64,000 bases of DNA, from assembly GCF_058153355.1 (NCBI RefSeq), contig NZ_CM177019.1; one strand, written 5' to 3'. Positions 12,804-15,656 of this stretch are shown one piece after another (within the stretch, counting starts at the first letter, position 1; each line of letters begins with the position of its first letter). Under the pieces are notes generated by a model, which saw nothing but the letters and a program-made list of their open reading frames with translations, did not search any database and was not told the DNA's origin. Made by a program: the position numbers and the translations under genes.

Positions 12804-13562
12804 TTACTCCGTACGCCGGGCAACAATAAACAGACGCGGAAATGCCAGCAGTATCTGTCCGTTCTCTTGCAGTGGATACTGCTCTTCCAGCATCTGATGG
12901 TAGCGCGTAAGAAAATGCTGCTGTTCGCTCTCGGTCAGATCCTGTAACCACGGACGTAATCCAGTGGCGGTCACCCAGTCAATAATCGCCTGGTGCGACG
13001 GCATCTGGTGATAGTAAGTGGTTCGCCAGATATCGACCTCGCATCCGGCTTCACTCAAAATATCGTAGTAAGCATGAACGCCAGCCAGCGGCTCACGCCC
13101 GCGATCCGGGTAGTTTTGTTCCCAGGCGACTTCGCGCATGAGCACATGGGTAGGCTCCAGCCAGTTATCCGGCATTTGTACCGCCAGCACGCCCTGCGGA
13201 CTGAGTAACGAAACCAGATGAGGGAACAGTTCGTAATGGTCGGGCAGCCATTGCAGCGAGGCATTAGCAAAAATCAGATCGAGTGCCTGTTCCGGTTGCC
13301 AGTTGCGGATGTCTGCTTCCACGAACTGGCAGTCTGGCAAAGCACTGCGCGCTTCAGCAATCATCGCCGGAGACGAGTCGATGCCTGTTATCCTGGCCGC
13401 AGGCCAACGTTGATGCAGCAGGGCGGTGCTGTTACCTGGGCCACAGCCAAGATCGGCAACGTATTCGATATTCTCCAGCGGCACTCTGGCAAGCAGCTCC
13501 ACCGCCGGACGCGATCGTTCAGCGGCAAAGTGCAGATATAAAGAGGGGTTCCAGTCAGACAT
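12804..13562 (-). CDS. tam: Trans-aconitate 2-methyltransferase Tam
   Basis: 252-aa ORF with SAM-binding motif [12 protein letters not shown]; recognised as Tam. Confidence 0.85.
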
Positions 13563-13650
13563 ATTTTTACTCCCGTCAGCGCGTTACCCCTAGTGTAGAT
13601 AAAACTGTTGACATCCTCCACGCCCTGAAGGACGTGGATCCCTGCTACGT

Positions 13651-14859
13651 TCAGGCTGTCGCCTGAATCATTTCGGTGGGTTCCTGCTTCAACGGGCGGC
13701 CTGACTGCACCATCCCTCCACAGGCAAGAACGGCGTGCCCCGCCGCTAAAATGTTACGAGCGCCGTTCACATCGGCGTTCGCTGTGTATCCACATACCTG
13801 GCATCTGAATTTACTTTGTGACAGACGATTTTCTTTCGCTGTATGACCACAGCACGCGCAACGCTGGCTTGTGTACGCTGGCGGAACAGCAAGCACCTGA
13901 CCACCACGCCAGAGCTGCTTGTACTCAAGCTGGCGGCGCATTTCATACCAGCCCTGATCCAGTATCGAACGGTTTAAACCTGATTTTGCCCGGACATTGC
14001 GCCCCGGCGGGCTGACCGTACCCGCTGCTGACTTTGACATGTTACTGACCTTCAAATCCTCAATGACTATCATTGCGTGGTTTTTGCTGACGGTCGTTGT
14101 GACTTTATGAAGGTAGTCCCTGCGGATATTTGCGATACGGGAATGCAGTCGCTGTATTTTGCGTTTCTGCTTCTGCCAGTTATTGCTGAATTTGACCTTG
14201 CGGCTTAACTGTCGCTGAAGTCTCGCCAGCGTCTTCTGGTTTTTCTGAAAACTGTTTACAGGCTCAAAGACTGTGCCATCTGACAGCATGGCGAGTTTAG
14301 CCACGCCAGCATCCAGCCCGATCATTGATGCTGAAGGGTGAACCGGAGTGGATACTTCACTTTCTGTCTGAATACTGATGTACCACTTACCGCAGGACTG
14401 GCTGACAGTGACATTTTTCACAACCCCCGTGACCTGACGGCTGTTCCGGTAGCGCATCCAGCCCAGTTTCGGCAGAAAAATACGGCTGTTTTCCTGATCG
14501 AGCTTAACGCCCTGCGGGTAGCGGAATGCATCATTCTGTCCCCGCGTTTTGAATCGGGGAAAAGCAGCCCGCTTCTGGAAGAAGTTTTTGTAAGCCCGCT
14601 CAAGGTCTTTCAGTGACTGTTGCAATGGCTGTGAGGGCGAATCTTTAAGCCATTGCGTTTCAGTGGCGTTTTTCCACTCAACCAGCCAGGAAGCCATTTT
14701 CCCGTAAGGGATGTATTTATTACCGGCCTCATGATTCTCATTCTGACGTGCCAGAGCACGATTGAAAACGAAACGACATGCGCCTGCGAAGCGCCTCATT
14801 TCACGCTCCTGTTGACCACCGGGTCTTAACTGGAATTTAAATGCCTGTAGTCGTTTCAC
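13651..14859 (-). CDS. tnpB: TnpB (OrfB), RNA-guided RuvC-like nuclease of the IS200/IS605 family
   Basis: 402-aa ORF with RuvC-like motifs (..[12 protein letters not shown]..) and C-terminal zinc finger (CACCGH..CQVCGY) followed by [10 protein letters not shown]. Confidence 0.85.
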
Positions 14860-14929
14860 AGGTCAAATGATACTTTGGTCTGTGAAAAAAGAAACCGATA
14901 TCCGGCGTGGAAGGCATTGTGTTTTCCTG

Positions 14930-15350
14930 ATGCATGTTCACCTGGTCTTTGTCCCAAATACCGACGCCAGATTTTTGACCATGACGCGACAGAAAAACTA
15001 CGCACTTACTTTTCAAATGTATGTGCTGATTTTGAAGCTGAACTGGTTGAAATGGATGGCGAACCAGATCACGTCCATTTGTTAATTAACTATCCTCCCA
15101 AACTGGCGATATCCAGTCTGGTAAACAGCCTCAAAGGCGTATCGGGTAGGTTACTGCGACGAGATCGACCAGATATTGCAGTCAGGTATTACTACAAAGG
15201 CGTTTTGTGGAGTCCTGGCTATTTTGCCAGTAGCTGCGGAGGTGCGCCAATATCCGTCATCCGCCAATACATTGAACAACAGCAAACACCTGGTCAGGTG
15301 GAAAACCGCGCCTTATATCCCCGCCCTGAAGGACGGGGTTTTACGGCGCA
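14930..15350 (+). pseudogene. tnpA: IS200/IS605 tnpA (HUH Y1 transposase) with apparent frameshift near the 5' end
   Basis: N-terminal motif RHCVFLMHVHLVFVP is in one frame (from ATG 14930) while KYRRQIF..DHVHLLINYPPK..YYKGVLWSPGYF..YIEQQ is in the +1 frame; the switch lies at about 14950-14957. End uncertain. Confidence 0.55.
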
Positions 15351-15365
15351 CCGGATAAATTCGCC

Positions 15366-15656
15366 TCACGGCATCAATCCATTGAACAGACGTTTTTTAC
15401 GCGGCCCGGTCATTAAAGATTCCAGTTTTGCGACACAGGTTTTGTAGTGGGGCGTGGTTTTATGGAACGCCACTGCGTCTTCATCTTTATAGGCTTCATA
15501 GATATAAAAGCGCGAATTCACTTCCGGGTCCTGTAAGACATCGAAGCGCAAATTGCCTTCTTCCTGTACCGAGCCCAGGTGGTTCTGGCGAAAAACTTCG
15601 ATAAACTCGTCAACCTTGTCTTCATGAACGTTAATTTCAACCAGTGTGACGTGCAT
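15366..15656 (-). CDS. lsrG: LsrG, phospho-AI-2 isomerase (ABM monooxygenase-like fold)
   Basis: 96-aa ORF recognised as LsrG; last gene of the lsrACDBFG cluster on the minus strand. Confidence 0.9.

Follow-up and report, generated by a model that had tools for sequence, protein, structure and literature searches.

An IS609 copy with a frameshifted tnpA, an intact tnpB and a predicted guide-RNA scaffold between lsrG and tam

What separates tam from the lsr operon in the stretch of DNA considered here, and what might keep it in place? The window, that is, the whole 64,000 nucleotides analysed from contig NZ_CM177019.1 (RefSeq assembly GCF_058153355.1), had been described once from its letters alone, and this preliminary description placed an IS200/IS605 element carrying tnpB between lsrG and tam at 13600-15350. 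The insertion proved to be real and the flanking genes were correctly placed (tam start at 13562, lsrG stop at 15366), and the boundaries of the element are now refined to 13608-15354. Judged by its sequence, the element is a copy of the catalogued, and thus already known, Escherichia coli insertion sequence IS609. We consider it very probable that this copy combines a dead tnpA with an intact tnpB and a guide-RNA scaffold, and that TnpB and its guide RNA would cleave the empty allele of the insertion site.

Ends, target and identity of the insertion

The ends of the element were set against two genomes with an empty site (strain G12, L002, and strain MFDS1022581, L074) and five other E. coli copies. 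Alignment to the empty-site genomes, in which the lsrG-tam spacer measures 56 nt, located the 1,747 extra bases of the window (Table 1). On the minus strand the empty spacer reads ...GAATTTAT|CAGTTTTATCTACA..., and the extra bases start exactly at the bar. Comparison of the empty junction (GAATTTAT|CAGTTTTATC) with the two occupied ones (TTTAT|CCGGTG... and ...GTCAA|CAGTTTT) showed that the insertion is seamless, with neither a target-site duplication nor terminal inverted repeats.

Table 1. Features of the insertion and its surroundings (window coordinates).
Feature	Position	Strand	Remarks
tam (trans-aconitate 2-methyltransferase)	12804..13562	-	separated from upstream lsrG by 1,803 nt (56 nt at the empty site)
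Predicted 20-nt guide	13588..13607	-	CAGUUUUAUCUACACUAGGG; tam 5' leader, ends 26 nt before the ATG at 13562
Complete IS609-type insertion	13608..15354	- (top strand = window minus)	1,747 nt; from empty sites and five other copies
Right-end cleavage tetranucleotide TCAA	13608..13611	-	last bases of the element
Predicted guide-RNA (omega/reRNA) scaffold	13608..13754	-	-147 to -1 (147 nt up to the right end); eight helices
Right-end subterminal hairpin	13617..13638	-	T-CCACGTCC-TTCA-GGGCGTGG-A; direct repeat of the left-end hairpin
tnpB (insQ)	13651..14859	-	402 aa, GTG start, uninterrupted ORF
tnpA pseudogene (Y1 HUH transposase)	14867..15354	+	divergent from tnpB
Left-end subterminal hairpin	15319..15338	-	CCCCGTCC-TTCA-GGGCGGGG; conserved in relatives
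Presumed left "guide" tetranucleotide AAAA	15339..15342	-	just 5' of the left hairpin; would specify TTAT
Target motif and predicted TAM TTTAT (core TTAT)	15355..15359	-	abuts the left end on its 5' side
lsrG	15366..15656	-	last lsr operon gene upstream of the insertion

The preliminary description had made its family assignment depend on the presence of IS200/IS605 terminal structures, and hairpins were found at both ends; together with the seamless junctions and the lack of inverted repeats, these subterminal hairpins place the element in IS200/IS605 (IS609 type). Folded as single-stranded DNA, the left end (15300-15354) reaches -14.1 kcal/mol (z -2.8) and the right end (13608-13655) -9.3 kcal/mol (z -2.4). 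The right end, ...GGAGGATGTCAA, is invariant in 42 loci from many Enterobacterales and is followed in each by unrelated flank. At the left end, the tetranucleotide covaries with the target: the window and six loci combine TTAT with AAAA, three loci combine TTAC with AAAG, and one locus (L007) is an exception. Pairing between tetranucleotide and target is a rule known from the IS608 literature, IS608 itself having AAAG and TTAC, as do the TTAC relatives of the window element. TTAT abuts the left end in all six E. coli copies (five loci), five of which have the longer TTTAT. TTAT is also the TAM used in a published assay of an IS609-type TnpB (PMC12781874, Table S2).

Over its full length, the window copy is 97.9-98.4% identical to E. 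coli copies annotated as IS609 or IS200/IS605; the name IS609 is taken from the RefSeq label of tnpA ("IS200/IS605-like element IS609 family transposase") and not from an ISfinder entry. A query comprising tam, lsr and the element matched a median of three places per E. coli genome, and IS609 copies lie at several different E. coli loci, indicating that the family has moved within the species. A full copy at the lsrG-tam site was found in 30 of 5,426 complete E. coli genomes, most of which have no insertion there (counting a shortened derivative, the occupied genomes number 31), and no other IS609 copies or solo ends were found within the 64-kb window.

The insertion splits the lsrACDBFG-tam transcription unit and may, as the preliminary description suggested, uncouple tam from upstream transcription. 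A consensus scan of the minus strand found no sigma-70-like promoter, so a guide RNA may be made by read-through from lsr or else start at a non-consensus promoter. For the same reason, the earlier suggestion that the element brings its own promoters gains no support from the scan, which does not refute it either. The terminator-like stems inside the element are weak.

Decay of tnpA and conservation of tnpB

The transposase gene, which the preliminary description had missed, is broken in the window copy. It lacks 1 nt between 14953 and 14954 that is present in the five other copies and in L073. This deletion shifts the frame: the region now reads as two ORFs that overlap in different frames, one at 14867-15085 and the other at 14875-15447, and the N-terminal strand (HVHLVFV) is parted from the remainder of TnpA. 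The stop codon of tnpA is not found inside the element, having been lost in all E. coli copies. After repair of the frame, TnpA scores 148 bits against the NCBIfam model transpos_IS200 (cut-off 55), matches the IS608 and ISDra2 TnpA structures in the PDB (IS608 TnpA, 2A6M, at E 2.5e-21), and retains both the HUH motif (DHVHLL) and the context of the catalytic tyrosine (VIRQYIEQQ). Among six E. coli copies, the variant codons of tnpA comprise 2 synonymous and 16 non-synonymous cases (pN/pS 1.38); the gene evolves neutrally. Because tnpA is frameshifted, the window copy probably cannot transpose by itself, and its movement would probably need TnpA supplied by another copy.

In contrast to tnpA, tnpB has a pN/pS of 0.23 in the same six copies and is under purifying selection while tnpA decays. 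Its product had been called intact on the strength of RuvC-like motifs and a zinc finger, with the proviso that the RuvC residues might fail on alignment; aligned to ISDra2 TnpB, the whole triad (D183/E267/D363, corresponding to ISDra2 D191/E278/D361) and the four zinc-finger cysteines (C334/C337/C353/C356, corresponding to C331/C334/C351/C354) are present (ISDra2 numbering from PMC10097598). Residues 3-376 match ISDra2 TnpB (8EXA/8BF8) at E 1.2e-55, the NCBIfam model guided_TnpB is matched at 386.9 bits (cut-off 100), and Pfam recognizes HTH_OrfB_IS605 (3e-14), OrfB_IS605 (RuvC; 4.3e-33) and the Cas12f1-like TNB zinc ribbon (5.8e-24). By these matches, tnpB encodes an RNA-guided RuvC nuclease, for which TAM-dependent cleavage is predicted. 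At the same site, a related strain (2017-02-2CC) carries a 726-nt derivative from which tnpB has been deleted, and one further same-site copy has a frameshifted insQ.

RNA structure at the tnpB 3' end and its predicted guide

The preliminary description expected an omega RNA at about 13600-13700, from the tnpB 3' end and the adjacent hairpin. Covariation and sub-threshold Rfam matches bear out this placement, with a scaffold that is longer than proposed (13608-13754). In an RNAalifold consensus of 29 relatives, whose RNA sequences are 80-95% identical to that of the window, 16 of 41 pairs show compensatory changes. Scaffold partners are paired in 96% of cells, versus 41-48% when the partners are slid, and none of 500 shuffles reached the observed pairing values. 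Helix 8 is the right-end hairpin itself (UUCA loop) and has five covarying pairs; helices 2, 4, 6 and 7 are internal (40-140 nt into the element), and 10 of their pairs have changed on both sides. A long-range, pseudoknot-like helix joins 13749-13754 to 13611-13616 (-147..-142 with -9..-4). Since the scaffold lies mostly within the tnpB coding sequence, the protein accounts for some of its conservation, but the covariation and the slid-partner control argue against protein coding explaining all of it. Thus, the tnpB 3' end and right end carry a conserved RNA structure, which would be expressed and processed as a guide RNA.

At gathering thresholds, Rfam returned zero families for the whole 64-kb window. 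Sub-threshold matches fall on the minus strand at 13595-13778 (tnpB 3' end plus right-end hairpin) and involve HgcC (RF00062; 31.4 bits, E 1.4e-4, gathering threshold 50), sot0042 (RF02656; 20.5 bits, threshold 88) and RAGATH-18 (RF03064; 28.1 bits, threshold 44.9). These families share the placement and the UUCA-loop hairpin of the window RNA, which by Rfam's own thresholds is not a member of any of them. HgcC and the sotRNAs have been linked to tnpB 3' ends, E. coli K-12 transcripts overlapping a tnpB 3' end have been reported, and a tetraloop like that of the right end has been noted in HgcC (PMC4615843).

By analogy with ISDra2 (PMC8612924), the flank following the right end is assigned as the guide. 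It would run from 13607 down to about 13588 and thus reads into the tam 5' region, as the preliminary description anticipated. Empty alleles carry TTTAT followed by CAGTTTTATCTACAATTGGG, which agrees with the predicted guide at 18 of 20 positions, including all of the first 14. No second combination of TAM and guide match was found in the 64-kb window, where the sole match to the guide is the occupied junction, in which TCAA replaces TTAT.

Retention of the element, rival readings and known systems

The mechanism that most likely favours retention of the element is, by analogy with characterized systems, cutting of the empty allele TTTAT + CAGTTTTATC... by TnpB and its guide RNA. The element would have entered the lsrG-tam spacer as single-stranded DNA, 3' of TTTAT and without duplication. 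Transcription through the right end would then append some 16-20 nt of the tam leader (CAGUUUUAUCUACACUAGGG) as the guide, with which TnpB may recognize TTTAT + CAGTTTTATCTACACTAGGG, by analogy with the mechanism of ISDra2 and Geobacillus elements. TTTAT and the guide match would adjoin only in the seamless empty allele, whether left by excision or carried by an incoming chromosome; TnpB and its RNA would cut that allele, and recombinational repair from the occupied copy would restore the element. The occupied allele would be spared because ...GTCAA, and not TTTAT, precedes the target there. Expression and processing of the RNA, the cleavage activity and any effect on tam are all inferred. Because tnpA no longer works in this copy and is decaying in others, excision may happen too rarely for retention to play a role. 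In a close relative most of tnpB is gone, with no apparent consequence, which counts against the retention model.

That the window copy is instead a fully autonomous IS609, mobile at present and with both TnpA and TnpB working, is extremely improbable. Such a reading draws on the intact ends, hairpins, TTAT/AAAA and TCAA features, and on the median of three query-matching places per genome over several loci, which shows that the family has moved; the 1-nt deletion in tnpA already contradicts autonomy, the gene has lost its stop codon in all E. coli copies and evolves neutrally, and K-12 mutation-accumulation lines showed zero IS609 transposition (PMC5009759). TnpA also figures in the proposal that the structure at the tnpB 3' end reflects only its single-stranded DNA hairpin and codon conservation, with no functional RNA. 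Helix 8 is indeed the right-end hairpin that TnpA must recognize as DNA, the scaffold mostly overlaps coding sequence and the Rfam matches are sub-threshold, yet helices 2, 4, 6 and 7 covary where TnpA has no known requirement, pairing drops when partners are slid, the architecture is similar to that of the ISDra2 guide RNA, whose structure is solved, and K-12 transcripts overlap the tnpB 3' end (PMC4615843); we regard this proposal as very unlikely.

Domestication by the host, with TnpB and its RNA acting as a TldR-like repressor or a regulator of tam or lsr and no longer serving the element, appears equally doubtful. Purifying selection on tnpB against a decaying tnpA, a guide lying in the tam leader and a position within the lsrACDBFG-tam unit would suit it; selfish retention, however, predicts the same selection on tnpB, the occupied allele has no TAM next to the guide site, the insertion is present in just 30 of the 5,426 genomes, and tnpB is deleted in a close relative and frameshifted in one same-site copy. 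A TldR-like domesticated TnpB was rejected, the catalytic triad (unlike that of the nuclease-dead TldRs; PMC10705468) and both transposon ends being intact. TnpB-mediated retention of an IS609 copy with a dead tnpA remains our preferred reading.

The site may have been filled by one insertion or by several, two histories that were compared through element and flank divergence for nine full-length copies besides that of the window and for two empty sites. The window copy and a five-genome cluster occupy the same site in flanks that are 3.0-3.9% diverged (two haplotypes); their elements are no closer to one another than to copies at other loci, and near-identical haplotypes at lsrG/tam are empty. 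We consider it unlikely that this TTTAT site is a recurrent or actively maintained landing site. If the occupancy pattern does reflect cleavage of empty alleles by TnpB and its guide RNA, working through recombination as a natural gene drive and possibly driven by transcription reading through from the quorum-sensing lsr promoter, E. coli populations would provide a case of retention or homing by TnpB that outlasts TnpA decay.

Little of this is new in kind: IS609 is a catalogued element, existing annotation already treats its TnpB as an RNA-guided endonuclease, and the 30 complete genomes have the same insertion annotated. Literature on the function of IS609 or InsQ consists mostly of catalogue mentions, the exceptions being a screen in which one TnpB was of IS609 type and the K-12 transposition result. 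The practical value lies in having the ends, TAM, guide, scaffold and dead tnpA of this copy mapped precisely, which enables a direct test of native TnpB and guide RNA in E. coli, and of what splitting lsrACDBFG-tam does to tam. The selection contrast between tnpB and tnpA, and the occupancy of diverged haplotypes, are small hints that fit the published selfish-retention model.

Compared with IS609 of K-12, where insP/tnpA and insQ/tnpB lie at ydcO-ydcL, the window copy at lsrG/tam has the same ends, divergent tnpA and tnpB, TTAT target and 402-aa TnpB, and it is 97.9% identical to the copy of the K-12-lineage strain JM109 (1,747 versus 1,748 nt). The tnpA defects differ, being a private 1-nt deletion in the window and an internal stop in K-12, and the window TnpB has three private substitutions (T105, M191 and P284), none of them at a catalytic position. 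With ISDra2 of Deinococcus radiodurans, the element shares the D-E-D triad and CCCC zinc finger of TnpB, a guide RNA (predicted here) that the 3' end of tnpB and the right end supply together, a UUYA-loop hairpin before the guide (UUCA in the window, UUUA in ISDra2) and a pseudoknot, or in the window a pseudoknot-like helix, linking the bases just 5' of the guide to a distant 5' segment. The latter pairs -147..-142 with -9..-4 in the window versus -106..-102 with -6..-2 in ISDra2, making the window scaffold longer; the TAM is TTAT/TTTAT versus TTGAT, and tnpA is divergent in the window whereas it is co-oriented in ISDra2. From IS608 of Helicobacter pylori, the window copy differs in its target (TTAT versus TTAC), its divergent genes and its dead tnpA, while the two have in common TnpA homology with the HUH motif and catalytic tyrosine (in the window within a frameshifted gene that has lost its function), seamless insertion 3' of a tetranucleotide and a right end in TCAA.

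An IS609-type insertion between lsrG and tam

In element-free E. coli (strains G12 and MFDS1022581), lsrG and tam are separated by a 56-nt spacer that contains, on the minus strand, GAATTTAT/CAGTTTTATCTACA, where the slash marks the insertion point. Relative to these empty sites, the window carries 1,747 additional bases precisely at the slash, with no duplication of target bases. The preliminary description, which had placed an IS200/IS605 element at about 13600-15350 between tam (13562) and lsrG (15366), was essentially right about the coordinates of the element and the positions of the flanking genes, and its reading stands with three refinements: exact ends, a longer guide-RNA scaffold, and a broken tnpA that it had overlooked. 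Its family assignment is borne out by the seamless ends, by end hairpins that are direct rather than inverted copies of each other, and by full-length identity of 97.9-98.4% to 1,748-nt E. coli elements at ydcO/ydcL (K-12 lineage), yfeD/gltX, a TetR gene, and yeaR, whose genes RefSeq labels "IS200/IS605(-like element IS609) family transposase" and "RNA-guided endonuclease InsQ/TnpB". The element is ordinary and already catalogued (IS609). Among the 5,426 complete genomes of E. coli searched with a 3-kb query spanning this stretch, 30 carry the full insertion here and most of the others have the empty site.

Features of the lsrG/tam region (window plus-strand coordinates)
Feature	Position	Strand	Remarks
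tam	12804-13562	minus	
lsrG	15366-15656	minus	
IS609-type element	13608-15354	minus (as top strand)	
tnpB	13651-14859	minus	402-aa ORF, GTG start at 14859
tnpA	14867-15292	plus	ATG at 14867; divergent from tnpB
Inverted repeat	14854-14887		
Predicted guide-RNA scaffold	13754-13608	minus	positions -147 to -1
Predicted guide	13607-13588		flank CAGUUUUAUCUACACUAGGG; ends 26 nt upstream of tam ATG

Read with the minus strand as top, the element opens with CCGGTGCGCCGTAAAA and the hairpin CCCCGTCC-TTCA-GGGCGGGG (15338-15319) and closes with the hairpin CCACGTCC-TTCA-GGGCGTGG and AGGATGTCAA, the last base being 13608; both hairpins are stable when folded as ssDNA. TTAT lies directly 5' of the left end in all six E. 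coli copies (five loci) and TTTAT in five of them, while the flanks beyond TCAA are unrelated among these copies. When one genome per species was scanned, 66 related loci came up, and 42 of them have the invariant right end GGAGGATGTCAA followed by unrelated sequence. Among the relatives (L007-L053, with left ends at about locus position 1000), the target changes in step with the four bases 5' of the left hairpin: TTAT accompanies AAAA in the window plus six loci, and TTAC accompanies AAAG in three, the sole exception being Escherichia sp. MOD1-EC7003 (L007), with TTAC and AAAA. This covariation is the IS608-type rule, by which the transposon directs target choice. In three of the six E. coli copies, the right-end hairpin differs at two bases, reading CCTCGTCA where the window has CCACGTCC (window positions 13630 and 13635, compared with L001, L004, and L006), and its stem is weaker; the mosaic spread of this variant over loci suggests gene conversion between copies.

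Condition of tnpB and tnpA

The 402-aa TnpB with RuvC motifs and a zinc finger was correctly recognized in the preliminary description. The product contains all three TnpB Pfam domains, scores 386.9 bits on NCBIfam guided_TnpB, and aligns to TnpB of the Deinococcus radiodurans element ISDra2 (E 1.2e-55), with D183, E267, and D363 opposite catalytic D191, E278, and D361, and C334, C337, C353, and C356 opposite the four zinc ligands. The overlooked tnpA lies on the opposite strand, its ATG just 7 nt from the tnpB GTG. With one base restored, its product scores 148 bits on NCBIfam transpos_IS200 (cut-off 55), matches the TnpA structures of IS608 and ISDra2, and has both a HUH motif (DHVHLL) and the helix of the catalytic tyrosine (VIRQYIEQQ). 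Spanning both start codons is a 14-nt inverted repeat (TTTCACAGGTCAAA and TTTGGTCTGTGAAA, 86% complementary, 6-nt spacer), which may serve as an operator or in translational control.

The window's tnpA has lost one base between 14953 and 14954 (GTCACCAAATAC to GTCCCAAATAC), which shifts the frame past the first beta-strand; because the closest relative carrying an insertion at the same site lacks this deletion, it is confined to the lineage of the window. All E. coli copies (window 15285-15354, plus strand; L001, L003-L006) have CAG in place of the TAG stop after ...EQQQTPG that is kept in Serratia, Klebsiella, and Yersinia relatives (L011, L013, L015), so that the reading frame continues through the left hairpin into whatever flank is present. 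Further, independent lesions include loss of the ATG in L001, a same-site copy, and an internal stop shared by the ydcO and yfeD copies, which occupy different loci. Every E. coli copy's tnpA is a pseudogene in RefSeq, flagged 'missing C-terminus', and IS609 transposition has never been seen in K-12 mutation-accumulation lines (PMC5009759). Across the six E. coli copies, pN/pS was 0.23 for tnpB (31 synonymous and 25 non-synonymous variant codons) and 1.38 for tnpA (2 and 16, respectively), numbers that are small but clear in direction: judged by these codons, tnpB is under purifying selection and tnpA looks neutral. The same-site copy of E. coli GPT24-02 (L077, 3401-4598) has an 11-nt deletion, and the annotation gives its insQ/tnpB a frameshift, so that not every copy at this locus maintains tnpB.

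History of the lsrG/tam site

The same TTTAT is occupied on two haplotype groups with flanks 3.0-3.9% apart. Five full same-site copies (L001, L075-L078) cluster together and have all lost the same single nucleotide in the right-end region. The window copy does not carry the marks diagnostic of this cluster, nor is it sister to the other copies at this site, its element being 1.8-2.1% from the cluster versus 1.55-2.06% from copies at other loci (L003-L006); its flanks are 3.0-3.9% from the cluster and 1.05% from an empty-site strain. This pattern fits two insertions at the same TTTAT and, equally well, an old insertion with later seamless losses and gene conversion.

The closest relative found, strain 2017-02-2CC (flanks 98.6-99.1% identical to the window), carries at this site (L073, 6359-7084) a 726-nt derivative composed of window 13608-13751 and 14771-15354. 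The deletion of 13752-14770 removes approximately tnpB codons 31-370 and leaves both ends, tnpA with its frame intact, and the final 144 nt, essentially the whole predicted scaffold; the junction, CGTTT/TAGCGG, is located at the 5' strand of the scaffold's pseudoknot-like helix.

Predicted guide RNA and proposed mechanism

A guide RNA from the tnpB 3' end and adjacent hairpin had been proposed in the preliminary description; covariation now backs such a scaffold, which is longer than the roughly 13600-13700 envisaged. No Rfam family reached threshold in the 64-kb window; three TnpB-linked families (HgcC, RAGATH-18, and sot0042) match below it, all within 13595-13778 of the minus strand, with HgcC scoring 31.4 bits (E 1.4e-4) over the full-length model. 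Gomes-Filho et al. tied HgcC and sotRNAs to tnpB 3' ends via a right-end-like UUCA tetraloop and described sense-overlapping transcripts of this kind in E. coli K-12 as well (PMC4615843). We aligned the last 175 nt of 29 distinct relatives, and the RNAalifold consensus comprised 41 pairs in eight helices, with compensatory changes in 16 of the 41. Standard pairs were formed in 96% of cells, versus 41-48% when partners were slid by 1-3 columns; the 16 pairs changed on both sides compare with 5.7 in shuffles and 5-9 in slid controls, and none of 500 shuffles matched any observed measure. Because ten covarying pairs (helices 2, 4, 6, and 7) lie within the coding region, away from the TnpA-required hairpin, the covariation argues for a conserved RNA rather than DNA structure alone.

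A promoter scan found no consensus promoter on the minus strand, tnpB runs in the same direction as lsr and tam, and operon lists based on K-12 treat lsrACDBFG-tam as a single unit (PMC8085971); tnpB mRNA and the tam transcript could thus both plausibly arise by read-through from the lsr promoter. By analogy with ISDra2 (PMC8612924) and Geobacillus elements (PMC10055086), the TnpB/guide-RNA complex would cut DNA bearing the TAM (target motif) followed by a guide match; guide-RNA expression, processing, and cleavage are all things we infer. A published screen likewise used TTAT as the TAM for one IS609-type TnpB (PMC12781874, Table S2). In the two empty-site strains, the seamless empty allele reads TTTAT followed by CAGTTTTATCTACAATTGGG, which agrees with the window guide at 18 of its 20 positions, among them the first 14; with TAM and guide match both present, this allele would be the target of the cut, and the occupied allele would be spared because GTCAA precedes the target there.

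The outermost scaffold helix pairs ACAUUU (13754-13749) with GGAUGU (13616-13611), just 5' of the predicted guide. Its changes among the 29 relatives are one-sided only, and it is conservation and analogy that support it: in the ISDra2 cryo-EM structure, a pseudoknot joins positions -6 to -2 with -102 to -106 beside a UUUA-loop hairpin (PMC10097598), and the outermost helix of the window RNA would be the same feature.
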